Assembly (NCBI GenBank): GCA_943356495.1
Contig: CALRFF010000002.1
Span: 165,875 to 229,874 of the forward strand
DNA from: Candidatus Nomurabacteria bacterium
GTDB taxonomy: Bacteria > Patescibacteriota > Minisyncoccia > Phycocordibacterales > SBAW01
DNA length: 64,000 bases
Direction of reading: 5' to 3'
The notes beneath the pieces were generated by a model, which was given only the letters and a program-made list of their open reading frames with translations, did not search any database and was not told the origin of the DNA. This document shows positions 17,900 through 55,199 of this stretch, one piece after another. Position 1 is the stretch's first letter, and each line of letters opens with the position of its first letter. A program made the position numbers and the translations under genes.

Positions 17900-18751
17900 A
17901 TGGATAAGAAAACTATACTGGTCACCGGCGGCGCCGGATTTATCGGCTCGCACTTGTGTGAGCGTCTTGTCGCGCAAGGGCATAGGGTTATTTCACTTGA
18001 TAATTACTTCGCCGGCTCAAAAGACAATCATGTCGCGGGAGTAGAGTATCGTACGGGCCACACCAAAGACATCGAAACACTGGTCCCCGAGACACCGGAT
18101 GTGGTGTACCACTTAGGCGAGTACTCGCGCGTCGAAATTTCTTTAGAGGAGCCGGCGCTGGTGTGGGACTTAAACAAAGACGGCACGTTCGGCGTAGCGG
18201 AGTTTTGGCGCAAAAAAAAGTGCAAGCTGGTGTACGCGGGCTCAAGCACCAAGTTTGGCGACGGCGGGCTGGGGCGCGTACAAAGCCCTTACGCGTGGAC
18301 CAAAGCAAGCAACACCGAGTTGGTGCAGAATTACGGCCGGTGGTACTCCTTGCCGTACGCTATTACGTACTTTTATAACGTGTACGGTCCGCGCGAGCGC
18401 GCGGGCAAGTACGGTACGGTGATCGAGATATTTAGACAAAAAAAGATGCACGGCGAGCCACTGACCGTGGTTGCTCCGGGTACACAAAAGCGCAATTACA
18501 CGCATGTCGGCGATATTGTGGAAGGATTGCTGGCGGTGGGAGAGCGCGGCGAAGGCGACGAGTACGGACTCGGCGCCGAAGAGCAGTACTCGGTGCTCGA
18601 TGTGGCGCGGATGTTCGGCGGGGAAGTGACGATGCTGCCCGAGCGCGCCGGCAACCGTATGGACGCGACGCTCGATACCACCAAGTCGCAAGCGATAGGG
18701 TGGAGGCCTACACACAAGCTTGCAGATTACATACAAGCCGCTATTGCATGA
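17900..18751 (+). CDS. NAD-dependent nucleotide-sugar epimerase/dehydratase (UDP-glucuronate decarboxylase/UDP-glucose 4-epimerase-like)
   Basis: ILVTGGAGFIGSHLCERL Rossmann motif, YxxxK region. Start at MDKK. Confidence 0.75.
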   Translation: MDKKTILVTGGAGFIGSHLCERLVAQGHRVISLDNYFAGSKDNHVAGVEYRTGHTKDIETLVPETPDVVYHLGEYSRVEISLEEPALVWDLNKDGTFGVAEFWRKKKCKLVYAGSSTKFGDGGLGRVQSPYAWTKASNTELVQNYGRWYSLPYAITYFYNVYGPRERAGKYGTVIEIFRQKKMHGEPLTVVAPGTQKRNYTHVGDIVEGLLAVGERGEGDEYGLGAEEQYSVLDVARMFGGEVTMLPERAGNRMDATLDTTKSQAIGWRPTHKLADYIQAAIA

Positions 18752-19839
18752 AAAAGATTTTAATATTTTCTTTAGCCTACTACCCGCGCGTGGGCGGGGC
18801 CGAGGTGGCTATTAAAGAAATAACCGACCGTATTGCAGACATCGAATTCCACATGGTTACGATGCGTTTTTCACGTACTGATGCGCCGGTCGAACAGGTG
18901 GGCCATGTGCTGGTGCATCGGGTGGGCGGTGGGAGTTCATATATAGACAAAATATTGTTTATCCCGCGCGCGGTACAAACCGCGCGGCGCTTGCACAAAC
19001 AAATCGGGTTTGATGCTTGTTGGTCGATGATGAGTTATATGCTTTTACCTGTAGTTTTGGCGCGGCTCGGCATCCCCTATGCATTAACTCTGCAAGAAGG
19101 AGATACAGAAGAGTACATGTTTGCCCGCGCGCGCATACTGCCGTTTTTATTCTTGTTAAAAAAAGGATTCCGCAATGCCACGGCCGTGTCGGCTCTCTCT
19201 ACTTTTTTGGCGGCGTGGGCAAAACGCATGGGATACGCGGGTAAAGTCGAAGTCATACCCAACGGCGCTGATGTGCAAAAATTTTCAGGAACAAAAGTCT
19301 CGCATCAGGGCACAGTACTTATTACGTCCTCGCGTCTGGTACACAAAAACGCCGTCGACGACGTAATACGAGCGATGGTTTTAGTGCCGGAGGTGCGGTT
19401 TCAAATCGCGGGAGCGGGGCCAGAAGAAGAAAATCTCAAGGCATTAGCTTGCGAGCTTAAGGTCGAGAACCGTATCGAGTGGCTCGGCTATATGGACCAT
19501 AGCCGTTTGGTGTCTCTGCTACATGCCGCGGATATTTATATACGCCCCAGCCGGAGCGAGGGCTTTGGGGCTTCTTTCCCCGAAGCAATGGCGGCGGGGA
19601 TCCCTGTTATTACTACACAAGAAGGGGGTCTTAAAGACTATATAACCCCCGAGGTGGCATGGCCTGTAGAGAAAGATCGGCCCGATCAAATTGCCTTGCA
19701 AATTAAAGCTATTTTGAGTAACCCAGAGCGTACGGCCCAGGTTATAGAAACGGCTCGGGCCATGGTCGTACAAAAATATGACTGGAGCCTCATAGCGCGC
19801 GATATGCGGGAGAAGGTATTCGCCCGTCTTTTTGTATGA
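18748..19839 (+). CDS. Glycosyltransferase family 4
   Basis: C-terminal PSRSEGFGASFPEAMAAGIPVI (E-x7-E GT4 motif). ATG overlaps the upstream stop. Confidence 0.8.
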   Translation: MKKILIFSLAYYPRVGGAEVAIKEITDRIADIEFHMVTMRFSRTDAPVEQVGHVLVHRVGGGSSYIDKILFIPRAVQTARRLHKQIGFDACWSMMSYMLLPVVLARLGIPYALTLQEGDTEEYMFARARILPFLFLLKKGFRNATAVSALSTFLAAWAKRMGYAGKVEVIPNGADVQKFSGTKVSHQGTVLITSSRLVHKNAVDDVIRAMVLVPEVRFQIAGAGPEEENLKALACELKVENRIEWLGYMDHSRLVSLLHAADIYIRPSRSEGFGASFPEAMAAGIPVITTQEGGLKDYITPEVAWPVEKDRPDQIALQIKAILSNPERTAQVIETARAMVVQKYDWSLIARDMREKVFARLFV

Positions 19840-20840
19840 CGCAAAAAAAAGTTTTTATAGCAACCGGCCTGTATCCGCCCCAAAGCGGCGGGCCGGCCAC
19901 CTACAGCAAATTTCTTGAAGAGCGCCTGCCGGCTCTCGGGTTTGCCGTGTCTGTGTTGCCGTACCGCCGCGTGCGCCGTGTGCCGAAGATACTCAGGCAT
20001 GCCGCATATTTTTTTATGAGCATCGGCTACGCGGCCGACGCCGATATAGTGTATGCGCTCGACACGGTAAGCGTCGGGTTCCCCGCGGTGCTGGCGGCCA
20101 TGGTAACGGGTAAACCGTTTGTGGTACGGGTGCCCGGGGATTACGCGTGGGAGCAGGGGCGGCAACGCTTCGGTGTTACCGAGGAGCTCGACGAATTTCA
20201 AACTAAAAAGTACGGTTGGAAGCTGGAGCTCTTGCGCCGCGCGCAGCGGTTTGTGGTTAACCGTGCGCGTGTGGTCGTGGTGCCGAGCGAGTATATGAAA
20301 CAGCTCGTCAGCGCGTGGACAAACCCTGCAAAAGTGCACCGTATCTACACCAGTATCGCGCTCCCGCCGGCGTACGAATTGCCGCAGGACAGACCTCAGG
20401 GTTTTCTTGTGGTGTCGTTCGGGCGCAAGGTACCGTGGAAAGGTTTTGAGGCGCTTGAGCGCGTGGTGTCCCAAGAGCCGCGTTGGAAGCTAAAAATCTT
20501 CAGCGAGTTGCCGCACGCGCAAGCCATGGGATGGCTTAAAACCGCGGACGTGTACGTTAACAACTCTACCTACGAAGGCCTTTCGCACCAGTTAGTCGAG
20601 GCGTTGTCGCTCGGCACGCCGATTATTGCCACCGATGTTGGCGGCAACCCAGAGGTAGTAAAAGACGCAGGGCTTTTAGTGCCGGCTCAAGACGACGAAG
20701 CGCTGTATCAGGCCATACGTAACGTCGAGGCGGACAGAGTTGCGGCCAGCGAGCGCGCGGTACGCGGCTTGGTGCGCGCGAAAGAATTTAACATTGATAG
20801 CGCGCTTACCCGCCTTTCGACACTTCTTAACACCTTATGA
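19836..20840 (+). CDS. Glycosyltransferase (GT4-like)
   Basis: NNSTYEGLSHQLVEALSLGTPIIATDVGG motif. Translationally coupled (ATGA) to its neighbours. Confidence 0.75.
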   Translation: MTQKKVFIATGLYPPQSGGPATYSKFLEERLPALGFAVSVLPYRRVRRVPKILRHAAYFFMSIGYAADADIVYALDTVSVGFPAVLAAMVTGKPFVVRVPGDYAWEQGRQRFGVTEELDEFQTKKYGWKLELLRRAQRFVVNRARVVVVPSEYMKQLVSAWTNPAKVHRIYTSIALPPAYELPQDRPQGFLVVSFGRKVPWKGFEALERVVSQEPRWKLKIFSELPHAQAMGWLKTADVYVNNSTYEGLSHQLVEALSLGTPIIATDVGGNPEVVKDAGLLVPAQDDEALYQAIRNVEADRVAASERAVRGLVRAKEFNIDSALTRLSTLLNTL

Positions 20841-21724
20841 AAGTCCTTATGATAACGGGCGACAAACGGTTCGGCCCCGGCCACCCGCGTTTCGATGCGC
20901 AGGCCGGGGCGGTTGAGCGCTTGGAGGTCATTTTTTGGGGCCGCGGAGCTTTGTGGCCCAAAGTGCCGCAAGGCCCCTTCGATGTGGTGACCGTGCAGGA
21001 CCCCTTTTGGCGGGGGCTGTTTGCCAAGCGAGTCGCGCGCATGTTGGGCGCGCGTTTTAACGTACAAGTCCACACCGACCTTGCGGCCCAGCCGCTGGTG
21101 CGGCGCGTGTTGGCGAGTATGGTGTTGCGCAAGGCGACTTCGGTCCGCGTGGTGTCGGAAACAATTAAAAAACAGGTGCTACGTTTGGGCGTCCGCGCGC
21201 CTATAACCGTATTGCCGGTGTTTGTAGAGTTGGAGCGTTTTAAAGCGATAGTGCCGGTGCCGCACGCGCAAAAAACAATATTGTGGGTCGGCCGTTTTGA
21301 ATATGAAAAAGACCCCTTACGTGCGCTTGAGATTATACAAACCATACCGGAAGCAACGTTGGTTATGTTGGGCAGCGGGAGTTTAGAGCAAAAACTTCGC
21401 ACCGTATCTGGGAGGCTAAACCTTCCAGTGGAGTTTCCCGGCTGGCACGAGCCGGCGGGTTACTTGGCGCGGGCAGACGTCGTACTGTCGACCTCGCGGC
21501 ACGAAAGTTGGGGGCAAAGCATAGTAGAGGCGCTCGCGGCAGGCGTGCCGGTGGTAGCCCCCGATGTCGGCATTGCGCGGGAAGCCGGCGCTGTAGTCGT
21601 ACCAAGGTCAGACCTCGGTCGGGCGGTTGCTCAGGTGTTGGCCTCGGGTACACGCGGGGTACTTGCGCTTTCGTTGCCTACCAAAGAAGCGTGGGCAAAG
21701 GAGTGGGCACAAAGCCTTGTATGA
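20837..21724 (+). CDS. Glycosyltransferase (GT4-like)
   Basis: SRHESWGQSIVEALAAGVPVVAPDVG motif. Confidence 0.75.
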   Translation: MKVLMITGDKRFGPGHPRFDAQAGAVERLEVIFWGRGALWPKVPQGPFDVVTVQDPFWRGLFAKRVARMLGARFNVQVHTDLAAQPLVRRVLASMVLRKATSVRVVSETIKKQVLRLGVRAPITVLPVFVELERFKAIVPVPHAQKTILWVGRFEYEKDPLRALEIIQTIPEATLVMLGSGSLEQKLRTVSGRLNLPVEFPGWHEPAGYLARADVVLSTSRHESWGQSIVEALAAGVPVVAPDVGIAREAGAVVVPRSDLGRAVAQVLASGTRGVLALSLPTKEAWAKEWAQSLV

Positions 21725-22689
21725 AATTACTTATCTGCGCTCAAGCGGTAGACAAAAACGACCCTATGCTCGGGTTTTTTGTCGCGTGGGTGGCCGAGTT
21801 GTCGACGCACTACGAACAGGTAACCGTGCTGTGTCTGCGGGAAGGTGAGCATAAGCTCCCGCCTAATGTTACGGTGCTGTGCTTGGGGCGCGGACGTCTC
21901 ATGCGTTTGGCCCAACTACTACGATATATCGTAGTGCTTCGAAAAAATTACGACGCGGTATTTGTGCACATGAGCCAAGAGTTTGTGCTTGCCGCCGGCT
22001 GGCTGTGGACGCTGCTTGGTAAAAAAATATATCTCTGGCGCAACCATTATGCGGGCTCATTGCTTACCTCGTTCGCCGCACGTAGCGCTGCAACCGTATT
22101 TTATACATCCGCATTTTCGTATACCGCGCGCTACCGCAATGCGGTACGTATGCCGGTCGGAGTAGTACTGCAGGCAGTGCCCGCACTACCCCGCGTCCCG
22201 CACTCGGTGCTCTTTTTGGGCCGCATTGCCCCTAGCAAACGTCCGGAGCTATTGCTCGAGGCCGCGCGCCTGCTTACAACGCCGGTCCAGCTGTCGTTCG
22301 TTGGTCCTGCAGACAAGGCCTACCTAGCCTCGCTTACGGCCCGCGCACCGGAGGGTACGCAGTTTTCCGCCGGTGTGCCGCACGCCGACACACCGCGGGT
22401 GTTTGCGGCGCACGAACTGTTCGTCAACCTTTCTCCGTCGGGGATGTTTGATAAAACTATCTTCGAGGCCGCGAGCGCGGGCTGTGTACCCTTTGCCACC
22501 AGTAAAGACTGGGGGGCGCTTATGCCGGAGTTGTATGTTGATGGCGCCGTGGCGCTCGCGCGCGCGGTAGACCGTTTTTTTGCGCTGCCGGAGGAAGAAA
22601 GGGCGCGTCTGCGCAACGCGGCACGCGCCGAGGCCGAGCGCCAGAGCCTGCCGCGCCTTGCAAAGCGCCTCGTGGAAGAGATGTCCTGA
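21721..22689 (+). CDS. Glycosyltransferase (GT-B fold, GT4-like)
   Basis: Start at MKLLICAQAV (ATGA overlap with upstream stop). FEAASAGCVPFATS in the C-terminal half. The listed ORF start is a spurious in-frame extension. Confidence 0.6.
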   Translation: MKLLICAQAVDKNDPMLGFFVAWVAELSTHYEQVTVLCLREGEHKLPPNVTVLCLGRGRLMRLAQLLRYIVVLRKNYDAVFVHMSQEFVLAAGWLWTLLGKKIYLWRNHYAGSLLTSFAARSAATVFYTSAFSYTARYRNAVRMPVGVVLQAVPALPRVPHSVLFLGRIAPSKRPELLLEAARLLTTPVQLSFVGPADKAYLASLTARAPEGTQFSAGVPHADTPRVFAAHELFVNLSPSGMFDKTIFEAASAGCVPFATSKDWGALMPELYVDGAVALARAVDRFFALPEEERARLRNAARAEAERQSLPRLAKRLVEEMS

Positions 22690-22707
22690 ATAGCCTATAC
22701 TCACCCT

Positions 22708-23304
22708 ATGCGCATGCCTTGGGACGCGTTTGTAGACAGCCATATACGCGAGTTGGCCCGCAAGCGGGACGTGCTTGATGTGGGCGGCGGGGAGCGGTTT
22801 CAAAAGTGGCTGGCTCCGTACCGCGACCTGTTTGCCGGGTCTAACTACCGTACGTTCGACACCGACAAAGTGTCGGGGGCGGACATCGTGGGCGACATAC
22901 ATCACCTGCCGATGCCGGAGCATTCGCTCGACGGGATTATCTGCCAAAGCGTACTCGAGCATGTACACGACCCGCTGCGCGCGATGGCCGAACTTAAGCG
23001 CGTGTTGCGCCCCGGCGGCGCCATGCTGTTGTATGTGCCGTCTATATATCCGTATCATGCACGCAAAGGCGCGTACGGCGACTATTGGCGGTTTTTTGAC
23101 GACACCATAGCGCTTTTATTCGAAGGTTTTGCCGAGGTCGCGGTGTGCAAACGCGGCGGGTACTTTACCGCACTTTCTTTTTTTGTACCGTTCCAACACA
23201 AGATGCGCTTTGTACTCGACCCGCTGGCCTATGTGCTTGATACGTTGCTTGGGACCGTGCGCCGCACGACCACCGCGGGGTACTACGTGTACGCCATCAA
23301 ATGA
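22708..23304 (+). CDS. Class I SAM-dependent methyltransferase
   Basis: VLDVGGGE (motif I), SLDGIICQSVLEHV, LRPGGAMLLYVP - Methyltransf_11-like. Confidence 0.7.
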   Translation: MRMPWDAFVDSHIRELARKRDVLDVGGGERFQKWLAPYRDLFAGSNYRTFDTDKVSGADIVGDIHHLPMPEHSLDGIICQSVLEHVHDPLRAMAELKRVLRPGGAMLLYVPSIYPYHARKGAYGDYWRFFDDTIALLFEGFAEVAVCKRGGYFTALSFFVPFQHKMRFVLDPLAYVLDTLLGTVRRTTTAGYYVYAIK

Positions 23305-24464
23305 AACAACCGCTTACGGTAGTATATGTAGCCGATACGCGGCTCCCGACCGAAAAGGCTCACGGCCTCGCGCTTATGAAGCTGTGCGAAGCGTTTGCCC
23401 GCGCGGGTACGCGCGTCGAGGTGGTGGCGCCGCGCCTGCTGCGTTTGAGTAAAAAAGACCCGTACGAGTATTACGGCGTCAAGCCGCTCTTTACCATTAC
23501 GCGCGTGCCGAGCATCGACCTGCACCCGCTGCGCGTTGCACGGCGCTTGTTGTATCTGGTGCAGATGGTCTCCTTTTCGCTGTGTGCCGCGGCGTACTGC
23601 GCGTGGCAGTACCGTGGCCGTACCGTGGTTTACTTTTCGCACGACTATATGCCGCTATACTTCCTCTCGTTTCTTGGAGTGCCGGTGTATTACGACATTC
23701 ATCACTTCCCCGGCACAAATTTTATGTATCGCCGGATTATGCGCCGTGCAGCCGGGTTTGCGGTGCAGACTAAATGGAAAATAGACGAGTTGCACCGCCG
23801 GTTCGGCATAGCAAAAGAAAAAATAGTGTATTGGCCGAACGGCACCGACGTAGACATCTTTGCGATAGAAGAGAGTGTTGCCGAGGCGCGGCACGCGGTC
23901 GGTTTAAAGGCGCAGGGCCCCGTGGCGCTGTATGTGGGGCAATTTTTTGCATGGAAGGGCGTGGCCACGCTGGTGCGCGCGCTCGCGCATATGCCCCCGG
24001 CCGTACAGTTGGTGCTGGTCGGGGGCACCGAGGAAGACACCAAGCAATTGCAAAAAGAAGTACCCGAAAGCAACAACCCGCGTATATTGTTTGTGCCGTT
24101 TCAAAAACGGGAGACTGTCCCGCATTGGCTGCGCGCCGCCGATGTGCTCGTCTTGCCCAACACCGGCACGCAGGCGGTGTCCAAGTATTACACTTCGCCT
24201 ATGAAATTGTTCGAGTATTTGGCCTCCGGCCGCCCCGTAGTCGCTTCGGACTTACCGAGTATCCGAGAAATTGTGTCTGAAGATACGGCGTACTTGGTGG
24301 CGGCCGACGACCCCGCGGCGCTTGCCCGCGGCATTACGCATGCGCTTACAGACGTGGCAGACGCGGCCGCGCGTGCGGCCCGCGCGCGGGTGCATGGCGC
24401 GCGCTTTACGTGGGACGCCCGCGCACAGGCCATACTGCCGCACCTGCAGCACTGCTCGCTATGA
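23301..24464 (+). CDS. Glycosyltransferase family 4
   Basis: N-terminal GT4 donor domain, C-terminal FEYLASGRPVVASDLPSIREIV. Confidence 0.75.
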   Translation: MKQPLTVVYVADTRLPTEKAHGLALMKLCEAFARAGTRVEVVAPRLLRLSKKDPYEYYGVKPLFTITRVPSIDLHPLRVARRLLYLVQMVSFSLCAAAYCAWQYRGRTVVYFSHDYMPLYFLSFLGVPVYYDIHHFPGTNFMYRRIMRRAAGFAVQTKWKIDELHRRFGIAKEKIVYWPNGTDVDIFAIEESVAEARHAVGLKAQGPVALYVGQFFAWKGVATLVRALAHMPPAVQLVLVGGTEEDTKQLQKEVPESNNPRILFVPFQKRETVPHWLRAADVLVLPNTGTQAVSKYYTSPMKLFEYLASGRPVVASDLPSIREIVSEDTAYLVAADDPAALARGITHALTDVADAAARAARARVHGARFTWDARAQAILPHLQHCSL

Positions 24465-46991: not shown

Positions 46992-48707
46992 ATGCCCGCC
47001 CATAAAAATATAGACACTATTTGCATAGCGCCCGACACCGCGATAGCGGACACGTTGCGGGTGCTTGCCCGCAACAAGCCGCAAAAAAGCGGTATCCCCG
47101 GCGGCATCGCATTAGTGGTCGACGATTCCCGCACGCTTTTAGGGCTCGTCACCAGCGGAGACTTGCTGCGCGCGGTCGCCAAAGGCACGCCTTTGGCGCG
47201 GCCGGTGCGGAGCATTATGAATAAGGACCCGTTTGTGATTGTCGGCCGGCAGCCCGCCGCCGAGGTGGTGCGCCTTGCGGTGCAAAAAACCCGCGAAGAG
47301 GGCTGGCACAAAGACAGGCTGGAAAAAATTGTCATTGTCGACGCCAAGCGCAAGGTGCTTGATTTGGTCGACCTGTATGACCTGTGGCAGGGCAGCGACA
47401 TACGTCTGCGCCGTATCGCGGTCGTGGGGCTCGGCTACGTAGGGCTTACGTTGGGCCTGACGCTCGCGGATTTGGGCTTTGAAGTGCGGGGGTTTGATCT
47501 GAACGAAAAAGTGCGTGCCATGGTGTCGCGCAAAAAAGCGCCGTTTTTTGAGCTGGGGCTCCCCGAGCTTTTGACCACGCATGTGGGCAAGCGCTTTGCG
47601 GCCGTGGGCACGCTTACCGGCAACGAGTGCGAGGCGTATTTTATTGCCGTCGGTACGCCGCTTAACGCCGCTAAAAAGCCGGACCTCGGACACTTGCGCG
47701 CCGCGGCACAAAGCGTCGGTAAAGTATTAAAGCAAGGTGATGTCGTTATATTGCGTTCGACCGTGCCGCTCGGCACCACGCGCACGGTGGTAGTGCCGAT
47801 ACTGGAAAAGGCATCGGGGCTTACGGCGGGCGAAGACTTTTATGTCGCGTTTGCGCCGGAGCGCACGGTCGAGGGCAAGGCGCTCGAAGAGCTGCGCACC
47901 CTGCCGCAGGTTATCGGCGGTATTAACCGCGCCTCGGCCAACGTGGCGGCGGATATTTTTAACCTGATGACGCGCACTATCCACTTGGTGGACACGCTCG
48001 AAGAGGCCGAGGTGATAAAACTTATCAACAACACCTACCGCGACGTGTCCTTTGCTTTTGCCAACGAAGTGGCGCTTATCTGCCAACGCTGGGGGATAGA
48101 TACCAACAAAGTCATTACCGCGGCCAACGCCGGCTACGAGCGCAGCCGCGTCCCCAAGCCGTCCCCCGGGGTGGGCGGGTACTGTTTGGACAAAGATCCG
48201 TACATTTTTATCGAAGGCGGCAAAGCAAAACAGTACGAGTCCGCGCTGTTTAAAGAAGCGCGCGCGGTTAATACCGCTATTTTGCAGGTAGTGGTCGCTG
48301 ACGCCGTGGCGCACTTGCGTGCCGCGGGCAAAAAAAATCCGAAAGTCTTCGTGCTCGGCTTTGCCTTTAAGGGCAAGCCGGCCACCTCCGACCTGCGCGG
48401 CTCCTCCACGCTTATATTGGTCGAGGGTCTGCGTAAAGCGGGATACAAAAACATCCACGGCTTTGACCCGGTGGTCGGCGCTGCCGAGCTGCGCAAACTG
48501 CGCGTGCGCCCCGTTGCCGACCCGAAAGAAGGGTTTAAAGCTGCCGACTTGGTGATTATTATGAACAATCACGCGTACTTCGAGCAGCCCGACATGGTGC
48601 GCCACCTGCGCCACGCCGCCAAAGGCGCGCTCTTTTTTGACACTTGGGCGCTCCACAATCCGGAAGAAGTCGCCAAAATCTCCAACATCAAGTACCGCCG
48701 CCTATAA
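46992..48707 (+). CDS. CBS-pair domain fused to a UDP-glucose/GDP-mannose dehydrogenase family nucleotide-sugar dehydrogenase
   Basis: N-terminal about 130 aa CBS pair, then IAVVGLGYVGLTLGLTLADLGFEV Rossmann motif and catalytic PGVGGYCLDKDP. Confidence 0.8.
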   Translation: MPAHKNIDTICIAPDTAIADTLRVLARNKPQKSGIPGGIALVVDDSRTLLGLVTSGDLLRAVAKGTPLARPVRSIMNKDPFVIVGRQPAAEVVRLAVQKTREEGWHKDRLEKIVIVDAKRKVLDLVDLYDLWQGSDIRLRRIAVVGLGYVGLTLGLTLADLGFEVRGFDLNEKVRAMVSRKKAPFFELGLPELLTTHVGKRFAAVGTLTGNECEAYFIAVGTPLNAAKKPDLGHLRAAAQSVGKVLKQGDVVILRSTVPLGTTRTVVVPILEKASGLTAGEDFYVAFAPERTVEGKALEELRTLPQVIGGINRASANVAADIFNLMTRTIHLVDTLEEAEVIKLINNTYRDVSFAFANEVALICQRWGIDTNKVITAANAGYERSRVPKPSPGVGGYCLDKDPYIFIEGGKAKQYESALFKEARAVNTAILQVVVADAVAHLRAAGKKNPKVFVLGFAFKGKPATSDLRGSSTLILVEGLRKAGYKNIHGFDPVVGAAELRKLRVRPVADPKEGFKAADLVIIMNNHAYFEQPDMVRHLRHAAKGALFFDTWALHNPEEVAKISNIKYRRL

Positions 48708-49813
48708 TGGAACCCTGCATTGTCACTAACTTCGCGTACGGCACGGGGCCGTACCTGCGCACGACCGAGCTTGCGCTCGCCTTTAACGACGAGCTCGAGC
48801 GCCGCGGGCACAAGCGCATGAAGATAGTGGTGCCCTTGGTGTACGGCGAGCGGCAAAAACAAGTATTGGCAGAGGAATTCGGCGAGCATCCTGAAATTAT
48901 ATTTGACGAAACGCTCGGTGCGCTGTTAAAGAGCGTGTTTTATACGGGCGAGAAAAAATATGAAGAGAGTCTGCGTACGTGGATAACAAAGGCAGACGAG
49001 GTGTCGCGCGCCGCGCATGAGTATTTGAAAGACAAAAACGTCGCGGTCGAGATTAACCGCTCTCCGCGCGTGCGCTACGATGTGGCGCCCAGCTACTCGA
49101 CCGGCTTTGGCTACGTCGCCGATATTCTGGAGCATGCGCTGGCCGCGGGCCGTAGTGTGGTCGATGTAGACCCCGAGTTGCTTAAGGCCGGTATTGCGCT
49201 TGCCGACCGCATCGAGGGTAAGCAAGATTTGCGTTGCATGGCGTATCCCGCAACCTTTTCGTCGTTCCAAAACTACAAGCCGCGCTACGACGGCGAGGTG
49301 CTTGTCCCGCCGATTACCGACCTGCCCAAGGCGCGCGTGCACGAGCCGATGGAAGACGGTTTGTTTGTAACGATTACCGGTATTGAAGGGCTCGAACGTT
49401 TGTACGCCGAGGCCCGCGCGCTGGGGCTAAAGCTGTACTCCAACGACACCGGTGCCGTAGCGGGTGCGGTTAAAGCGTTACCGCACGTGCTCGGTAACCC
49501 CGCTATTAAACTGCAGTTTGCGCGCGCGGGCTGGGGGTCGGTATGGCTGTCGATGTTTACCGGCGTGCCGGTAGTGGTGCCGCAATACGACAAAACCGAT
49601 GACCCGGAGATTTATTGCAACAACAAAGCGGTCGAAGCAACCGGCATCGGTGTGGTGTACCGCGGCCAGCCGCTTGTGGAGATTATGGCGCAGGGCGACG
49701 CCGTGCGCGCAGCCCAAAAAAAGATGCGGGACGCTATTGTGGCGCGGTGGGGGACGCTTAGCGGCAACGAGGTGTGCGCCAAACTCATGGCCGACCGGTT
49801 TCTTGCCAAGTAG
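48707..49813 (+). CDS. Hypothetical GT-B-fold-like protein (possible nucleotide-sugar hydrolase/glycosyltransferase such as PseG/MurG-like)
   Basis: C-terminal ARAGWGSVWLSMFTGVPVVVPQY resembles the GT28 C-terminal donor-binding motif. Start chosen at MEPCIV. Weak assignment. Confidence 0.3.
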   Translation: MEPCIVTNFAYGTGPYLRTTELALAFNDELERRGHKRMKIVVPLVYGERQKQVLAEEFGEHPEIIFDETLGALLKSVFYTGEKKYEESLRTWITKADEVSRAAHEYLKDKNVAVEINRSPRVRYDVAPSYSTGFGYVADILEHALAAGRSVVDVDPELLKAGIALADRIEGKQDLRCMAYPATFSSFQNYKPRYDGEVLVPPITDLPKARVHEPMEDGLFVTITGIEGLERLYAEARALGLKLYSNDTGAVAGAVKALPHVLGNPAIKLQFARAGWGSVWLSMFTGVPVVVPQYDKTDDPEIYCNNKAVEATGIGVVYRGQPLVEIMAQGDAVRAAQKKMRDAIVARWGTLSGNEVCAKLMADRFLAK

Positions 49814-49840
49814 GCGGTTTTTATGTACAGTGTTTCGGCT

Positions 49841-50821
49841 ATGACAAAGCTGATAGTCGAGATTTGCCAAAACCACAACGGCTCGCGCGAGACCGTGCGC
49901 GAAATGATACAGGCCGCCGCACTGGCCGGCGCCGATATTATTAAAATGCAGTCTATGTGGTCGGCCGACCTACCTAAGCGCGAGCGCTTTGAGGAAGGCG
50001 AAGTGCACGCGCAGACCGGTATCCGCACCGCTATTAAGCGCCCCCACGGCCCCGAGCAGGAGCGTCTTGCCACACTTGACCTCTCTATAGACGACCATCA
50101 GTTTTTTATCGACACCTGCCACCGGTACGGGGTGTTGCCGATGACCACTATTTTCTCGCGGCACCGTATTGCGGAGGTTGCGGGCCCCAAAGCCCCCGGC
50201 AAATGGGTTAAGGTGGCAAGTTACGATTGCGCCAGTTACCCCATGCTGCGCGAGCTTGCCGAGCATTTTGATAACTTTATTATCTCGACCGGCGCAACCT
50301 ACGACCACGAGATACAAAAAACCGCCGAGCTTATGAAAAGTTTGGGTAAAAACTTTTCCTTTTTGCATTGCGTCACCAGCTACCCTAACGCGCTCGAAAT
50401 CTGCAACCTTGCGCGCATGGAGTGGTTGCGGCAGTTTACGCCGACGGTCGGTTGGAGCGACCACACCAAGATAGCCGACACCGGTTTGGCGGCGGCAAAA
50501 ATCGCCATTATGCTCGGTGCCGACTACGTCGAGCGGCACTTTACTATTTTGCCCGCCGATCAGACCAAAGACGGACCGGTTTCGATTAATCCCGCGATGC
50601 TCCGCGAGCTCTCCGCGTTTCGCAATCTTTCCAAAGCGCAGCAGCAGGAGCAGATAGCAAAAGAATATCCTAACTGGAAGTCTGCCGTAGGCGTGCCGGT
50701 GCGCGAGATGGGCCATATCGAGCTCCTCAACCGCGACTATTACCGTGGTCGCTTCGCCAGCCCCGACGGCAACGGCGGGTGGATATATAATTGGGAGGAA
50801 AAGCCGGTGCGCTTTGCCTAA
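49841..50821 (+). CDS. Divergent NeuB-family (N-acetylneuraminate synthase-like TIM barrel) protein without SAF domain
   Basis: LIVEICQNHNGSRETVREMIQAAALAGADIIKMQ and HCVTSYP parallel the first NeuB-like gene (IAEIGNNHNGD ... AVKFQ, HCVSIYP). Confidence 0.55.
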   Translation: MTKLIVEICQNHNGSRETVREMIQAAALAGADIIKMQSMWSADLPKRERFEEGEVHAQTGIRTAIKRPHGPEQERLATLDLSIDDHQFFIDTCHRYGVLPMTTIFSRHRIAEVAGPKAPGKWVKVASYDCASYPMLRELAEHFDNFIISTGATYDHEIQKTAELMKSLGKNFSFLHCVTSYPNALEICNLARMEWLRQFTPTVGWSDHTKIADTGLAAAKIAIMLGADYVERHFTILPADQTKDGPVSINPAMLRELSAFRNLSKAQQQEQIAKEYPNWKSAVGVPVREMGHIELLNRDYYRGRFASPDGNGGWIYNWEEKPVRFA

Positions 50822-51765
50822 TGAAAATTCTCAACCTGGTCGAACAATTTAGCGAGGAAGCAAAAAGCGTCCTTGCGGCGCTCGGCGAGGTTGACTATCG
50901 CTCGGTACGCCAAGAGGAGCTTGCGGCCGCAGTGGCGCCGTATGAGGCGCTCTTTGTGCGTCTCGGTCTCCAATACGACAAGACGGTTATAGACGCCGCG
51001 CCGAATCTGAAATACATCGCGACCGCTACGACCGGTCTTAACCATATCGATGTCGCGTATGCCGAGTCTAAAGGTATCAAGGTCATATCGCTGCGCGGCG
51101 AGAACCAATTTTTAGACACCATTACCTCGACCGCCGAGCTTGCCTTTGGTTTGCTGATAGATCTCGCGCGTTACACGCCGTGGGCCTACGACTCTATCCG
51201 CCGCTACGAAATGAAGATGGACGATTTTAGGGGCACCAGCCTGTTCGGCAAAACACTGGGCATTGTCGGCATGGGGCGCTTGGGCAAGATTATCGCCGCG
51301 GGCGCCGCGGGTTGGCGCATGAACGTTGTCTTTACCGACCCCAATGTTCCGCAGGAAAAATTTCCGCAGTATACAAAAGTATCGATGGACGAGCTGCTTG
51401 GCCAAAGCGACTTCGTAAGCCTGCACGTGCACCTGCTGCCGGAAACCGCGGGGCTACTGGGGGAGTCGGCGATAGGAAAAATGAAAAAAGGCGCACTGCT
51501 GGTTAACACCTCGCGCGGCGAGTTGGTGGACGAGGCAGCGGTGTTGCGCGCGCTAGAGAACGGGCACTTGGGCGGCTACGCCACCGACGTGCTTACCCGC
51601 GAGCTCGATTTTACTAAAAAGTTTGAGAACCATCCGCTCGTTGAGTACGCCAAAAAAAGCCACAACTGCATTATGGTCCCGCACACCGGCGGCCTTACGC
51701 ACGAGTCGCGCCGCGACACCGACGTCTTTATAGCCACCAAGCTCGCTGCTGCGGTGCGCGGGTAG
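50821..51765 (+). CDS. D-isomer-specific 2-hydroxyacid dehydrogenase family protein
   Basis: GKTLGIVGMGRLGKIIA NAD motif and catalytic region LLVNTSRGELVD ... HTGG. Confidence 0.8.
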   Translation: MKILNLVEQFSEEAKSVLAALGEVDYRSVRQEELAAAVAPYEALFVRLGLQYDKTVIDAAPNLKYIATATTGLNHIDVAYAESKGIKVISLRGENQFLDTITSTAELAFGLLIDLARYTPWAYDSIRRYEMKMDDFRGTSLFGKTLGIVGMGRLGKIIAAGAAGWRMNVVFTDPNVPQEKFPQYTKVSMDELLGQSDFVSLHVHLLPETAGLLGESAIGKMKKGALLVNTSRGELVDEAAVLRALENGHLGGYATDVLTRELDFTKKFENHPLVEYAKKSHNCIMVPHTGGLTHESRRDTDVFIATKLAAAVRG

Positions 51766-51857: not shown

Positions 51858-52901
51858 GTGGCGAAGATTGTGCTCGCGGCCCACGATGCGGGTCCGTCGA
51901 ACGCGCTTGGCGCGTTTGCCAAGGTGCTCGACTCTCCGGCGGTGTTTCTCGCGAACGCCGGCAAGACCTACCTGAACGAAAAGGCGACGGATGCCATGCG
52001 TTACAGCATACGCACCGCCGACTTCGTGCTTATCGGGATGTCGTTCCCGGAGGCTAATGCCGCCATCGAACTGATGGCGGCAAAGACCGCCGCGGAAGCG
52101 CGGATCCCGTACGGTTTCTGCGCCGACATACCGGGCGCGTGGAACCGTGTATGGTTTGCACCGTACCGCGCGTCGGCATCATTGTTGCTTACGGTGGGCG
52201 GCGTTGAGGAGATTGCCAAAGCGACGGCGCTCTTCCCCAAAGCCTACATCACCCGCACGGGCAACCCCGAGTGGGAGAAGTACTTCCTGCCCGCGAGCCG
52301 GAGTGCGGCCCGCGGCGCAATGGGCGCAAGTGATGACGAGTTTGTCATCCTTTCGCCCGGCGGCAAAGACGCGGTGCTCAATATCCAGTCATGGTCGACG
52401 GTGGTCGAGGCCGCCTCCTTGTACCGGAGTAATGTGGCGGTCGTGCTGACTTGCCACCCCGGCGACCGCACTCCGAAGGACGTGTACCAGTCGTTGGCAC
52501 ACTACGGCCAAAAGCTCGGCGTGCGGGTGCTCTGCTCGGAAACGCCAAGCGATGTACTGGTACCCGGCGTTGATGTGGTGGTACAGACACCAAACTTTTC
52601 GGTCGGCCTGCACGCGATGTGCAGGCGAGTCCCCGTCATCGATATGATGGGGGCCATGGCCGCGGAGCGGGTGTTTGAAAACACGGGTACGCGCGAAGGT
52701 CAGTTTGCGGGTACCGAGGCGGTGTTGTCGCTGTATTACGAAGAGGCGACCGCCCCCGCTCTGGCGCAAGCATTGGTGTCGGTGCGCACCAACACCGTCA
52801 TGCGCGAAGCGCAAGAGCGGTTGCTTCCGCCGCTTAAGCAAGGCGGTGCGGTCGCGGCGATGAAAGCCGCGGTCGAAGAAGTGCTCAATAAGAAGCGTTA
52901 G
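51858..52901 (+). CDS. Hypothetical protein (last gene of the ulosonic-acid-like sub-cluster)
   Basis: GTG start with SD AAAGAGG. No recognisable motif. Followed by a strong terminator. Confidence 0.4.
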   Translation: MAKIVLAAHDAGPSNALGAFAKVLDSPAVFLANAGKTYLNEKATDAMRYSIRTADFVLIGMSFPEANAAIELMAAKTAAEARIPYGFCADIPGAWNRVWFAPYRASASLLLTVGGVEEIAKATALFPKAYITRTGNPEWEKYFLPASRSAARGAMGASDDEFVILSPGGKDAVLNIQSWSTVVEAASLYRSNVAVVLTCHPGDRTPKDVYQSLAHYGQKLGVRVLCSETPSDVLVPGVDVVVQTPNFSVGLHAMCRRVPVIDMMGAMAAERVFENTGTREGQFAGTEAVLSLYYEEATAPALAQALVSVRTNTVMREAQERLLPPLKQGGAVAAMKAAVEEVLNKKR

Positions 52902-52908
52902 CCAGCAG

Positions 52909-52937
52909 CCCCTCCGTCAAACGGAGGGGCTTTTTTC
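52909..52937 (+). terminator. Rho-independent terminator (CCCCTCCGT-CAA-ACGGAGGGG + CTTTTTTC)
   Basis: Read directly from the sequence. Confidence 0.7.
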
Positions 52938-52951: not shown

Positions 52952-52967
52952 GTATAGTCTCTGTCAT

Positions 52968-55199
52968 ATGCAATACACCACGTACTTGCGCTGGGGCGTC
53001 ATAGCCGGCGTTTTTTTGGTTCTTATTACTCCGTTTTTGGTCGCCGGTTCCTGGGGCATACCGCCGTACTTTTTCCCTTTTATAACGGCTAAAAACTTTA
53101 CTTTCCGCATACTGGTCGAGTTGTCGCTCCTGTTGTACGTGATACTCGCCCTGCGCGAGCCCAAGTACCGCCCCCGCCCGTCGCTCATTATGTGGGCGGT
53201 GCTCGGGCTTGTGGTGTGGATGGGCTTGTCGACCATTACCAGCGTCGACCCGATAAAAAGCTTTTGGAGCAACTTCGAGCGCATGGACGGTTATGTTAAC
53301 CTCCTACACCTCTTTGCGTGGTTTGTTATCACCGGCGCGGTATTAACCGCCGAGAACTTGTGGGGGCGTTTTATTAATACCTCCATCGGTCTTAGTGCCG
53401 TGCAAGGGCTTGTGGCGCTTTTGCAGGTGATGCACCTGTTTGGGTTTGCCCCGAGTTCGCAAAGCGGCATACGCGCCGACACCACGTTCGGTAACGCGAC
53501 CTACTTGGCCGTGTTTATGCTGTTTAACATCTTCCTTACACTCTTTATGCTCGCGGGCCGTCTGCAAAAAGGCCGCCTCAGCGGCGGGTGGCAGGCGCTC
53601 TATGGTTTGGCGTTGGTGCTGCAGTTTGCGGGGCTCTTCTTTACCGAAACGCGCGGTGCACAACTTGGCGTTATCGGCGGGCTTATCGTCAGCGCGCTTT
53701 GGATAGCGGTATTTGCGGGGGCCAACCTTAAGGCGGCGCGGCGCTACGCGCTCTATACGCTCGGCGGACTCGCGGTGCTTATCGCGGTGTTTATAGGCAT
53801 CCGCGACACGCAGTTTGTCCAAAGCTCTTCGACGCTCAGTCGCTTGGCCTCTATCTCGCTCAGCGACTCTACCATCGCGGCCCGCATTCACTTTATCTGG
53901 CCGACGGCCATTAAAGGCATTATGGAAAAACCGGTAACCGGCTGGGGTGCGGAGAACTTTAGTTTCGTCTTCAATAAATATTACGAGCCGGGTATGTACA
54001 ACCAAGAGCAGTGGTTTGACCGCGCGCACAACCAATTCCTCGACTTCGGGATCGCGGGCGGCGTGCCGGCGCTCCTGTTGTACCTGTCACTCTTCTTCCT
54101 CGGTCTGTGGGCGCTGTGGCGCTCAAATCTCGGCGTGGCCGAGCAGGCGGTGCTCGTGGGGCTGTTGGCCGCATACGGGTTTAACAACTTGGCGGTCTTT
54201 GACAACGTAGTGAGCTTTATCTACTTCTTCGCGTTGATGGCGTACCTGCACAGCATCTCGCGCAAGGAGCTGCCGGGGTGGTTGTTCCTGTCGCGCAAAG
54301 TAGGCGAGCAGCCGCTGGCCATAGCCGCGCCGGTGCTCGCGATACTGATACTCGGCGCGGGCTTTGTGGTAAACGCGCCGGCGATGGCGCGCGCCTCGCA
54401 GCTGGTGCAGGCGCTCGGCTCGCAAAGCTCGGCCGACAAAAACTTGGCGCTCTTTGCCGCCTCGCTTGAAAACACAAAGCTGCCGGGCAACCCGATAGGG
54501 CTGCAGGAGGCGGTCGAGCAGTTGTCGCAGTTCAGCGTTAACACGGTGGCGCCTTCCTCCGTCGCCCCGGGCGTTAAGCAGCAGTACTTCTCGCTTACCG
54601 CCGGCAATCTTGAAATATTGATGCAGCAGCGCCGGCACGACGCGCGCCTCGAGCTCTTTATGGGGTTGCTGCTTTCGACCTTCGGCGACTATCAAAACTC
54701 AATCTCCTACCTTAACCAAGCCCTTGCCGACAGCCCTAAAAAACAGCAGATACTTATGCAGCTGGGCCTTACCCAAATACAAAGCGGTCAGCTTATAGAT
54801 GCGGTTGCAACGTTGCGCACCGCGTTTGAGTCGGAGAAAAACTATGACACCGCGCGCGTACTGTACGCCAGCGCGTACTACTATGCGGGGGATACCGCGC
54901 AAGGCGACGCGCTCCTGATAGAAAAGTGGGGTTCGGTCGTGGTAGACAACGACCAACTGATGCAGGTGTACACCAACACCAAGCAATGGTCGCGCGCCGT
55001 CGCTATCTGGAAGCTCCGCATCAGCAAAGACGACACCAACGTCCAGCTCCGCCTTGGCCTTGCGGGCGTGTACTTTGCCTCGGGTGACAATGCCTCGACT
55101 ATCGCCGAGTTGCGCGCCGTGGCCAAACTCCAGCCCGCTTCCGCCGGCCAAATGGAGACACTTATAAAGCAGATTCAAGACGGCACCCTAAAGCCCTAG
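52968..55199 (+). CDS. O-antigen ligase/PglL-like (Wzy_C) polytopic membrane protein with C-terminal TPR repeats
   Basis: About 12 hydrophobic helices with a large loop (HNQFLDFGIAGGVPALLLYL) typical of Wzy_C, then about 200-aa TPR-like helical repeats (YLNQALADSPKKQQILMQLGLTQIQSGQLIDA...). Confidence 0.6.
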   Translation: MQYTTYLRWGVIAGVFLVLITPFLVAGSWGIPPYFFPFITAKNFTFRILVELSLLLYVILALREPKYRPRPSLIMWAVLGLVVWMGLSTITSVDPIKSFWSNFERMDGYVNLLHLFAWFVITGAVLTAENLWGRFINTSIGLSAVQGLVALLQVMHLFGFAPSSQSGIRADTTFGNATYLAVFMLFNIFLTLFMLAGRLQKGRLSGGWQALYGLALVLQFAGLFFTETRGAQLGVIGGLIVSALWIAVFAGANLKAARRYALYTLGGLAVLIAVFIGIRDTQFVQSSSTLSRLASISLSDSTIAARIHFIWPTAIKGIMEKPVTGWGAENFSFVFNKYYEPGMYNQEQWFDRAHNQFLDFGIAGGVPALLLYLSLFFLGLWALWRSNLGVAEQAVLVGLLAAYGFNNLAVFDNVVSFIYFFALMAYLHSISRKELPGWLFLSRKVGEQPLAIAAPVLAILILGAGFVVNAPAMARASQLVQALGSQSSADKNLALFAASLENTKLPGNPIGLQEAVEQLSQFSVNTVAPSSVAPGVKQQYFSLTAGNLEILMQQRRHDARLELFMGLLLSTFGDYQNSISYLNQALADSPKKQQILMQLGLTQIQSGQLIDAVATLRTAFESEKNYDTARVLYASAYYYAGDTAQGDALLIEKWGSVVVDNDQLMQVYTNTKQWSRAVAIWKLRISKDDTNVQLRLGLAGVYFASGDNASTIAELRAVAKLQPASAGQMETLIKQIQDGTLKP

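Follow-up and report, generated by a model that had tools for sequence, protein, structure and literature searches.

The locus raises the question of what a long, almost co-directional run of sugar genes makes in a CPR bacterium, and whether it forms one unit. The window analysed here, meaning the whole 64 kb stretch of DNA, contains 35 tightly packed open reading frames between positions 17,900 and 55,199 (numbered g01–g35), in agreement with the public gene calls on identical contigs. Only g09 (25,538–26,089) and g22 (39,942–41,327) lie on the minus strand, as expected from a preliminary description which counted about 34 consecutive genes from 17.9 to 55.2 kb, two of them on that strand. 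The coupling by ATGA and TAATG overlaps that it proposed was confirmed: 18 of the 34 junctions are overlapping (11 ATGA, 2 TAATG), and the largest gap between genes is at most 92 nt. The co-directionality extends past the island and is not specific to it; the plus strand carries every called gene between 12,935 and 63,539 apart from g09 and g22, and the GC skew stays positive throughout. The island proper consists of 34 genes, g01–g34 (17,900–52,901, about 35 kb). It is closed by an intrinsic-terminator-like hairpin on the plus strand (52907–52931; an 11-bp stem with eight GC pairs, then a T run), the strongest terminator-like site in the 36.5–56.5 kb segment. From the spacing alone, we infer that g01–g34 are co-transcribed.

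The next gene, g35 (52968–55199, plus strand), encodes a membrane protein of the O-antigen-ligase family with 11 TM segments, a Wzy_C domain (69 bits, cutoff 31.7) and a C-terminal TPR, an architecture common to the O-oligosaccharyltransferases WsfB and PglL (PMC2943079); the PglL_A domain is absent from g35. The Wzy_C domain also covers polymerases and lipid ligases. The invariant residues, loop Arg and His among them, are R229, R258, R292, R306, W349-F-D351, H354 and D359. The gene has at least 494 relatives. In most of the 80 loci whose sequence extends far enough downstream, MurB and/or SecA come next, with SecA identity down to 58%. This O-antigen-ligase/PglL-like gene had been taken as the last one of the island. 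It does adjoin the island, but it was ruled out as cargo: a strong terminator stands in between, the gene is present where the island is absent, and it precedes MurB–SecA in most of these loci. The gene g35 is a conserved core gene and the anchor of the locus.

The SecA sequence puts the organism among the Paceibacteria-type CPR, its neighbours carrying the names Kaiserbacteria, Adlerbacteria and Paceibacterota, in line with the CPR-like host assumed earlier. In congeners, SecA, g35 and MurB are 85%, 70% and 59–68% identical to the window's copies; the island genes are matched at 35% at most or are absent, and different glycan genes occupy the site. In the distant relative L084, the island is absent and a TraG-like gene abuts g35. 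A strain contig is 99.5% identical up to position 26,074, then lacks the g10 gene, and identity falls to 87%. The locus L092 shows a compact version with methyltransferase, TagF-like, carbamoyltransferase and cassette genes, without the GT4 block, and carries an 897-aa fused TagF-like form. The segment 17,900–52,901 fills a hypervariable site beside g35–murB–secA. The remark that some 37 kb is disproportionate for a CPR genome gives half the point: the locus is large, but the content of this hotspot differs between relatives, with 0 kb at one extreme and about 35 kb at the other. This variation probably reflects gain, loss and replacement of cassettes among related CPR rather than recent foreign import.

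Domain searches on each protein upheld almost every earlier call (coordinates below are on the plus strand unless stated). The SDR-type g01 (17900–18751; Pfam Epimerase, 146 bits) is nucleotide-sugar epimerase/decarboxylase-like, with UDP-glucose 4-epimerase and UDP-glucuronate decarboxylase as best PDB matches. The g02–g08 block (18748–25549), with ATGA overlaps, comprises six GT4 (18748–19839, 19836–20840, 20837–21724, 21721–22689, 23301–24464 and 24461–25549; Pfam Glycos_transf_1/Glyco_trans_1_4) and the methyltransferase g06 (22708–23304; Methyltransf_11); no NCBIfam equivalog was reached in this block. It is followed by the SAM methyltransferase g09 (minus strand; Methyltransf_11, 43.6 bits), the GDP-mannose 4,6-dehydratase (GMD) g10 (26112–27137; TIGR01472, 414.6 bits for a cutoff of 415) and another GT4, g11 (27134–28354; Glycos_transf_1, 101 bits). 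Seven GT4 and one GT2 were thus found where at least eight and one had been announced. The supposed Wzx flippase, g12 (28344–29723), has no direct Pfam match and is kept as a divergent Wzx/MOP-type candidate on the basis of about 10 predicted hydrophobic TM helices and distant matches, by BLASTP (E = 2e-7) to the Pfam-annotated Wzx (Polysacc_synt protein) of the congener L007 and by tblastn (69 bits) to a Polysacc_synt gene of the locus L091. The methyltransferases g13 (29749–30432) and g15 (31368–32078), both Methyltransf_11, have in common a 300-nt stretch with 89% identity, and complete the predicted four. Between them, g14 (30429–31361) is unmatched itself; the PhyH-like Fe/2OG dioxygenase assignment holds through its family, in which 26 of 45 members match PF05721 and H177-x-D179, H262 and R272 (the HxD...H...R set) are invariant. 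The carbamoyltransferase is g17 (33468–35168), of NodU/CmcH O-carbamoyltransferase type (Carbam_trans_C 226 bits, Carbam_trans_N 132 bits; NodU 163 bits, below cutoff). The GT2 g19 (36509–37807; Pfam) precedes the expected sugar 3-C-methyltransferase g20 (37804–39006; E = 4e-84 to the TylC3-type D-mycarose 3-C-methyltransferase structure 4rv9, with a match to TcaB9 as well) and the second of the two announced dehydratases, g21 (39003–39962), an NDP-hexose 4,6-dehydratase of dTDP-glucose type (TIGR01181, 326 bits for a cutoff of 365). Beyond g22 lie an enolase-superfamily acid-sugar dehydratase, g23 (41360–42538; MR_MLE_C/N), galactonate/mannonate dehydratase-like with scores below cutoffs, and the PanE/ApbA-type 2-ketoacid reductase g24 (42523–43365; ApbA; apbA_panE 146 bits). 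By domain content, the anticipated C-methyl deoxyhexose, O-methyl, carbamoyl and ulosonic-acid chemistry is encoded. All the glycosyltransferase, NeuB and CMP-synthetase matches are below equivalog cutoffs, and therefore sugar identities are not fixed. No initiating phosphoglycosyl transferase, sugar-1-P nucleotidyltransferase or acceptor protein was identified in the 64 kb window.

Two NeuB (g28, g32) and two CTP_transf_3 proteins (g25, g29) are present in the island. The first ulosonate set (43391–46244) includes the CMP-synthetase g25 (43391–44104; CTP_transf_3), the cupins g26 and g27 (44110–44526 and 44587–45018; Cupin_2) and g28 (45108–46244; NeuB 258 bits plus SAF); PseF and NeuB models match it with scores below cutoffs, and g25, g27 and g28 are found again together in the loci L012 and L049. 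The second set belongs to a cassette kept across distant CPR (g29–g33, 46241–51765): the CMP-synthetase g29 (46241–46990), g30 with CBS and NDP-sugar 6-dehydrogenase domains (46992–48707), the orphan GT1-fold glycosyltransferase g31 (48707–49813), the SAF-less NeuB g32 (49823–50821) and the D-2-hydroxyacid dehydrogenase g33 (50821–51765). A complete ulosonic-acid-type module had been claimed. The NeuB/CMP-synthetase sets stand, but the module is not canonical, as an aminotransferase, an N-acetyltransferase and a sequence-recognisable NeuC are all absent from the island. The orphan GT-B protein g34 (51858–52901), for which only three homologs were found, has a predicted structure (AF2, pLDDT 77.8) placed by Foldseek closest to UDP-sugar 2-epimerases (TM 0.55–0.61), GT4s coming next. 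The module may be complete via this 2-epimerase-like protein.

Three proteins had been described as TagF-like phosphotransferases: g16 (32092–33441; NF046086, the BFO_1060 family, E = 4.6e-13, below cutoff), a candidate CMP-ulosonate transferase, g18 (35170–36543; Glyphos_transf 26.4 bits, NF046086 E = 1.7e-7) and g22 (minus strand; Glyphos_transf 30.6 bits, NF046086 E = 2.3e-11). The TagB/TagF-like GT-B character stands, with weak Glyphos_transf matches in two of the three and, for g16, a TarL profile match (E = 1.4e-5) and a paralog alignment. The polyol-phosphate role and the alditol-phosphate chemistry are not supported: domain searches of the window showed no CDP-glycerol/CDP-ribitol synthesis gene, and NF046086 represents the Tannerella Pse/Leg transferase family (PMC5420450). 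Among 33 loci, CTP_transf_3 was present in all 10 with a TagF-like gene versus 4 of the 23 without (Fisher p = 1.1e-5). The association was seen again in the unrelated MAG locus L005, where a homolog 43% identical to g22 adjoins NeuB and a CMP-synthetase. In sequence, g16, g18 and g22 resemble the Tannerella nonulosonic-acid transferase family. In L091, a relative, a TagD-like cytidylyltransferase adjoins the cassette, and therefore the TagF-like family may still include users of polyol-phosphate donors.

The S-layer glycan (slg) gene clusters of Geobacillus stearothermophilus NRS 2004/3a and Paenibacillus alvei are likewise polycistronic, co-directional and from monoderms, with nucleotide-sugar genes, several glycosyltransferases, methyltransferases, the TagF-like CDP-glycerol transferase homolog WsfC, and the Wzy_C O-oligosaccharyltransferases WsaB and WsfB, the latter with a C-terminal TPR like g35 (PMC2943079). 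Unlike them, the present island is far larger (34 genes), contains ulosonic-acid modules, has a Wzx-like flippase instead of ABC export, and lies upstream of a Wzy_C–TPR gene fixed beside murB–secA; an S-layer gene, a WsaP-type initiating transferase and an rml operon were not found here. Tannerella forsythia has a general protein O-glycosylation locus, next to which lies a strain-specific Pse/Leg locus that resembles the island: a TagB-like NulO transferase (Tanf_01245/BFO_1060; such transferases measure about 450 aa) adjoins a NeuB-type synthase and a CMP-synthetase, the ulosonic acid module is swapped between strains, and the NulO acceptor is ManNAcA, a uronic-acid-forming dehydrogenase being present in the island too (PMC5420450). 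The island's TagF-like proteins score 31–49 bits against NF046086 (cutoff 200) and so fall outside the family; of the three paralogs, g16 alone retains the sialyltransferase-type HP motif, PseB/C/H/G or LegB/C/H/G-type enzymes are absent from the island, and the host is a monoderm CPR. Proteobacterial O-antigen/capsule loci also show a fixed chromosomal site, variable glycosyltransferase, flippase and sugar-pathway cargo, and strain-level recombination breakpoints within the locus. In contrast with these, the island has no Wzz, distinct Wzy or atypical GC, its conserved flank is the ligase-family gene itself, and LPS and an outer membrane are not expected in CPR. With the canonical NeuC–NeuB–NeuA/Pse/Leg pathways, the island has in common its NeuB-family synthases and CTP_transf_3 proteins, and the 2-epimerase-like GT-B fold predicted for g34; it differs by matches all below equivalog cutoffs, by the missing amino- and acetyl-transfer steps, and by conserved extra partners (the CBS–NDP-sugar dehydrogenase, the orphan GT1-fold protein, the 2-hydroxyacid dehydrogenase, the enolase-type dehydratase, the PanE-type reductase and the cupins).

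Other readings of the locus were weighed. A recently acquired mobile island, or a prophage-borne glycan-modification module, would explain the presence/absence polymorphism among relatives and the TraG/VirD4-like ATPase upstream, but this is largely refuted and highly improbable. In GC, GC3 and RSCU the island cannot be told from its flanks (the RSCU rms is 0.17 between island and flanks and 0.21 between the two flanks), so that the composition test proposed for horizontal acquisition gave no foreign signal. Moreover, domain searches and repeat comparison of the region found neither an integrase nor a transposase nor direct repeats at the flanks, L084 keeps the TraG-like gene beside g35, and the best relatives of the island genes are in other CPR. 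It is conceivable, though doubtful, that two or more independent glycan systems are juxtaposed at a permissive site, the GT4-rich g01–g11 and the ulosonate/TagF-like g12–g34. The mosaic version in L092, the strain-level breakpoint at 26,074–27,506, the two NeuB/CMP-synthetase sets and the deviant GC3 of g02 (0.525) point that way; the single flippase candidate, the single ligase-type gene, and the short internal gaps with the sole strong terminator at the very end argue for one system.

Kdn teichulosonic acids are made by Streptomyces, and an anionic wall polymer, teichoic or teichulosonic in type, could be envisaged, anchored to peptidoglycan and not to protein, with the TagF-like proteins as polymerases and g35 as a Wzy-type polymerase or unrelated. 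A SAF-less NeuB is also present in Streptomyces (PMC8208679), and the Glyphos_transf and TarL similarities, the three TagF-like paralogs and the fused form in L092, the proximity of murB to g35 and the TagD-like gene of L091 are in favour of such a polymer. It is nevertheless unlikely, as neither a CDP-glycerol/CDP-ribitol synthesis gene nor an LCP ligase nor a TagGH ABC exporter is found in the window, the Wzx-like flippase and nine conventional glycosyltransferases suggest a heteroglycan, and g35 is 35–70% conserved across species with differing gene sets, unlike repeat-unit-specific Wzy polymerases.

We propose with moderate confidence that this Paceibacteria-type CPR uses the island, a hypervariable locus, to make a cell-surface glycan of flippase/ligase type with non-canonical ulosonic acids; the earlier view of a single operon-like surface-glycan locus ending beside an O-antigen-ligase/PglL-like gene is borne out. 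In this model, a lipid-linked oligosaccharide would be assembled on the cytoplasmic face by the seven GT4, the GT2 and the orphan GT1-fold transferase, from building blocks including a GDP-mannose-derived 6-deoxyhexose, a 3-C-methyl-6-deoxyhexose and an NDP-uronic acid. It would be decorated by the O-methyl- and carbamoyl-transferases and the PhyH-like hydroxylase, and would receive one or two CMP-activated ulosonic acids, supplied by the two NeuB/CMP-synthetase sets, through the three TagB/TagF-like transferases. The glycan would then be flipped across the membrane by g12 and transferred en bloc by g35 to an acceptor at the cell surface; a protein is the most likely one, be it of the S-layer, a pilin or otherwise secreted. 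Variable sugar genes at a fixed site are what one expects of a cell-surface coat that differs from strain to strain.

The segment from position 17,900 to 55,199 contained 35 genes (g01–g35 from 5′ to 3′), as determined from the ORF listing and from public gene calls for identical contigs. Only g09 (25,538–26,089) and g22 (39,942–41,327) were on the minus strand. The genes overlapped at 18 of the 34 junctions, with 11 overlaps of the ATGA type and two of the TAATG type, and the widest gap measured 92 nt. The co-directional glycan island of the preliminary description was borne out by this layout and by the domain searches, as were its two minus-strand genes and its ATGA/TAATG coupling; the count was 35 instead of about 34. 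The flanks showed the same co-directionality and the GC skew was positive throughout, so that orientation alone says little, and co-directionality was rejected as island-specific evidence.

Domain calls were checked against Pfam, NCBIfam and the PDB. By profile or structure comparison, seven GT4, one GT2 and one GT1-fold glycosyltransferases were present; the GT2 corresponded to the one initially described, and the number of GT4 enzymes came down from at least eight. They were accompanied by sugar-pathway genes for a GDP-mannose 4,6-dehydratase (GMD, g10; 414.6 bits), a dTDP-glucose-4,6-dehydratase-type SDR and a CBS-fused NDP-sugar dehydrogenase. Together with the two dehydratases, the four Methyltransf_11 methyltransferases, the sugar 3-C-methyltransferase (E = 4e-84 against the TylC3-type structure 4rv9) and the NodU/CmcH-type carbamoyltransferase had all been announced, and all had database matches. 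The ulosonate genes consisted of two NeuB-family synthases and two CTP_transf_3 synthetases. Also confirmed were an enolase-superfamily dehydratase, a PanE-type reductase, two cupins, a D-2-hydroxyacid dehydrogenase and the Wzy_C+TPR membrane protein. For five proteins the profile searches gave no direct match, and relaxing the Pfam thresholds produced only non-significant hints; four of the five were then resolved. Single-sequence PDB searches with g14, g31 and g34 yielded nothing useful. For g14, which is part of a large protein family, PhyH was matched by 26 of the 45 family members sampled, and the HxD...H...R set was invariant.

Module A (17.9–28.4 kb) comprised an SDR, the seven GT4 genes, two methyltransferases and the strain-variable GMD gene. 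Module B (28.3–41.3 kb) contained the Wzx-like g12, a PhyH-like dioxygenase (g14) between two methyltransferases (g13 and g15), three TagB/TagF-like paralogs (g16, g18 and g22) around the carbamoyltransferase g17, and an inserted trio of GT2, 3-C-methyltransferase and 4,6-dehydratase genes. Module C (41.4–52.9 kb) encoded an acid-sugar dehydratase and the PanE-type reductase, a CMP-synthetase/cupin/NeuB(SAF) set that was also found in two relatives' loci (L012 and L049), the cassette g29–g33, and g34. The g13 and g15 genes shared a 300-nt direct repeat with 89% identity (30,091–30,390 and 31,737–32,036), which probably arose by recent duplication and might serve as a substrate for recombination. 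The GT4 gene g02 (18,748–19,839) had a GC3 of 0.525, the lowest of 49 genes measured, the others ranging from 0.57 to 0.78; this hints at a history unlike that of the rest of the island.

The nearest SecA proteins, with 73–79% identity, were named Kaiserbacteria, Adlerbacteria, Paceibacterota and Parcubacteria, which supports the assignment to the CPR. A bacterial 16S rRNA gene was located at 5,567–7,029, followed by tRNA-Ile(GAT) and tRNA-Leu(CAG) in the stretch 5,567–8,115. No 23S rRNA gene was present in the remaining 56 kb of the window, and the rRNA genes are therefore unlinked. A tandem pair of fasciclin-domain proteins (8,205–8,813 and 9,232–9,870) was encoded 8 kb upstream of the island; they are likely secreted or surface-located, and they are possible candidate glycoprotein acceptors. 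The adjacent FemAB/GNAT-like gene (Acetyltransf_6, ATE_C; 9,867–10,544, minus strand) was within a segment of approximately 650 nt missing in the strain contig L009, which was otherwise 99.5–99.7% identical. A 33-nt palindromic element with the core CTACTACGATATATCGTAGTAG existed in two copies, one inside this strain-specific GNAT gene (10,141–10,173) and one inside the GT4 gene g05 (21,908–21,940). At 15,084–17,895, the genes for a TraG/VirD4-like ATPase and a ComEA-HHH+PKD protein overlapped each other and abutted g01, leaving no promoter-sized gap at the 5′ end of the island. A scan for sigma-70 promoters showed no excess of sites over shuffled sequence.

The other end of the island was marked by a strong terminator-like hairpin at 52,907–52,931, between g34 and g35. 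Beyond it, g35 was followed by murB and secA, and this arrangement was widely conserved. In two congeners with SecA 85–86% identical, the order g35 (70%), MurB (59–68%), SecA was the same as here. The genes immediately 5′ of g35 were different glycan genes, for a KpsF-like isomerase, a different Wzx encoded on the opposite strand, and NeuB, methyltransferase and glycosyltransferase proteins other than those found here, with at most 35% identity to the present island. At least 494 relatives of g35 turned up in a metagenome scan. Eighty loci were fetched, and MurB and/or SecA lay 3′ of g35 in most of those with enough downstream sequence; the order held down to a SecA identity of 58%. In the 33 loci that extended 8 kb or more upstream of g35, NeuB was present in 18, a CMP-synthetase in 14, a TagF-like gene in 10, a 4,6-dehydratase in eight, a 2-hydroxyacid dehydrogenase in five and GMD in three, and several loci had none of the surveyed genes. 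On the 519-kb contig L084, an ATPase of the TraG/VirD4 type, 72% identical to the one upstream of the present island, abutted g35 directly and the island was absent. The strain contig L009 (GCA_943354885.1) matched the window at 99.5% identity as far as position 26,074, continued without the GMD gene, and was only 87% identical over 27,506–31,422. The relatives' loci and the terminator together indicate that g35 is a conserved core gene acting as an anchor and that g01–g34 (17,900–52,901) are the cargo of a variable hotspot. The proposed comparison of synteny with CPR genomes thus revealed a conserved anchor with variable upstream cargo; the surface-glycan interpretation was partly supported, and g35, which had been included in the island, is a terminator-separated core gene and not cargo.

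The GC content was approximately 0.56 across the window, and the RSCU distance was 0.17 between island and flanks versus 0.21 between the two flanks. The island cargo is not compositionally foreign, and the horizontal acquisition that was to be probed by GC content and codon usage found no echo in either. A mobile island or prophage was rejected, with no integrase and no flanking repeats at the island and a composition equal to that of the flanks.

The locus is best interpreted as a flippase/ligase-type surface-glycan locus, with g12 as the flippase candidate. No Pfam or NCBIfam match was obtained for g12; it had approximately 10 TM segments and resembled relatives' Pfam-annotated Wzx/Polysacc_synt proteins in pairwise comparison. 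No Bac_transf or Glycos_transf_4 match was present among the window proteins scanned and the precomputed neighbour annotations, and the gene for the initiating phosphoglycosyl transferase may be elsewhere in the genome. The g35 protein matched Wzy_C with 69 bits (cutoff 31.7), possessed 11 TM segments and a C-terminal TPR domain, and in its Wzy_C loop displayed invariant Arg residues and an invariant W-F-D-x-x-H motif (H354). It matched only Wzy_C and TPR families at E ≤ 0.001, and neither PglL_A nor Wzy_C_2. The architecture of Wzy_C with a C-terminal TPR has been ascribed to the O-oligosaccharyltransferases WsfB and PglL (review, PMC2943079). The conservation of g35 across genomes with different cargo suggests a relaxed-specificity ligase or O-oligosaccharyltransferase. 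A repeat-unit-specific Wzy polymerase is expected to vary with its cargo.

The cassette g29–g33 was composed of a CMP-synthetase, the CBS-fused NDP-sugar dehydrogenase, an orphan GT1-fold protein, a NeuB without SAF domain and a D-2-hydroxyacid dehydrogenase. It was found with 49–66% identity, and with its order largely kept, in four further CPR loci, including those of a Candidatus Sungbacteria and a Parcubacteria group bacterium in which SecA was 66–68% and g35 only 34–36% identical. In the locus L092, the order was a methyltransferase, three TagF-like domains, a carbamoyltransferase, the cassette, g35, MurB and SecA. The L092 locus reads largely as modules B and C in compact form, which suggests that the present island is an L092-type core expanded by extra cassettes and the GT4 block. 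NeuB and PseI were the PDB matches of the NeuB-family synthases. The NeuB domain scored 258 bits in g28, which also has SAF, and 152 bits in g32, where SAF is missing; neither protein reached the equivalog cutoff of NeuB_NnaB or of PseI. SAF-less NeuB proteins have been reported in environmental lineages such as Streptomyces (PMC8208679). The CMP-synthetases g25 and g29 matched CTP_transf_3, and scored 114 and 131 bits, respectively, with the PseF model, under its cutoff of 205.7.

A complete ulosonic-acid module had been described. Its NeuB and CMP-synthetase components were recovered, and no aminotransferase, N-acetyltransferase or Epimerase_2 match was obtained among the window proteins scanned. 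On these grounds, and with all scores below the equivalog cutoffs, the canonical Pse, Leg and Neu5Ac pathways were rejected. A di-N-acyl Pse or Leg is unlikely for lack of the aminotransferase and N-acetyltransferase, unless these are encoded elsewhere, and a Kdn-like deaminated or novel acid appears more likely. The orphan GT-B protein g34 had almost no homologs, and its model, of moderate confidence (pLDDT 77.8), was closest in fold to UDP-sugar 2-epimerases, then to GT4 enzymes; it may perform a NeuC-like step. In a Parcubacteria relative (L094, GCA_007375765.1; 17,900–21,179), the CPR cassette was present with a second, canonical-looking set of NeuB, NeuC-type Epimerase_2, CTP_transf_3 and 2-hydroxyacid dehydrogenase genes, near which a formyltransferase and a polysaccharide deacetylase were encoded.

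The three TagB/TagF-like paralogs had led to the proposal of an alditol-phosphate. The TagF-like profile matched TarL (E = 1.4e-5), and Glyphos_transf was matched by g18 (26.4 bits) and g22 (30.6 bits; cutoff 22.1) and not by g16. No genes for CDP-glycerol or CDP-ribitol supply (TagD, TarI/J) were present in the window. All three paralogs matched NCBIfam NF046086, the BFO_1060 family (E = 5e-13 to 2e-7), with scores of 49, 30.7 and 43.4 bits for a cutoff of 200, which denotes resemblance and not membership. The TagB-like enzymes BFO_1060/Tanf_01245 are genetically required for Pse/Leg addition to the Tannerella forsythia O-glycan, where their acceptor is ManNAcA (PMC5420450). In the 33-locus survey, CTP_transf_3 was present in all 10 loci with a TagF-like gene versus four of the 23 loci without (p = 1.1e-5). 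The same association of TagF-like with NeuB and CMP-synthetase genes was seen in L005, L092 and L094; in L005, an unrelated MAG, two TagF-like genes clustered with a carbamoyltransferase, two NeuB and a CMP-synthetase. The lack of CDP-polyol genes, the NF046086 resemblance, the Tannerella role, the co-occurrence with CTP_transf_3 and the L005 cluster lead us to favour transfer of CMP-ulosonates by g16, g18 and g22, and speak against the alditol-phosphate here. As a caveat, the sialyltransferase HP motif was kept in g16 alone of the three paralogs. A search of contigs with the carbamoyltransferase brought up one relative. The parallel with Tannerella extends to the adjacent g30, whose best model was UDP-ManNAc dehydrogenase (227 bits, below cutoff): a uronic-acid acceptor could be supplied and put in place by g30 together with the GT1-fold protein g31. 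In L091, alone among the relatives, the gene for a TagD-like cytidylyltransferase (PF01467, 153 aa; 14,144–14,605) separated the ulosonate cassette from the Wzy_C-TPR gene, and some loci of this type may also use CDP-polyol donors.

The general logic of the locus is familiar, that of a polysaccharide or glycoprotein gene cluster, and its nearest counterparts overall are the S-layer glycan clusters of Gram-positive bacteria and the O-glycan/NulO arrangement of Tannerella. It is noteworthy for its CPR host, its clade-wide anchor with hypervariable cargo, its two orphan GT-B families and its conserved, non-canonical ulosonate cassette. Within the library searched, no paper linked Patescibacteria with nonulosonic acids, and nothing relevant on CPR glycan islands was found. 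We propose only tentatively, and with considerable doubt, a joint reading. Strain-specific glycans would be installed, throughout a broad clade of Paceibacteria, by the conserved Wzy_C-TPR transferase encoded next to murB–secA. These would be capped with an undescribed ulosonic acid made by a CPR-specific g29–g33-type cassette and added by a new TagB/TagF-like branch using CMP-ulosonates. Such a coat, hypervariable, acidic, methylated and carbamoylated, would decide how these episymbionts attach to host cells and how susceptible they are to phages.

CPR bacteria are thought to be host-attached with minimal genomes, and surface display is therefore central to their biology; to our knowledge it is almost entirely unknown. 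The locus gives a defined and conserved address, upstream of Wzy_C-TPR/murB/secA, for the surface-glycan diversity of the clade. It also gives a testable cassette, conserved and with two orphan GT-B families, for making a non-canonical ulosonic acid, and candidate CMP-ulosonate transferases of an enzyme class in which, as far as we know, very few members have been characterised.
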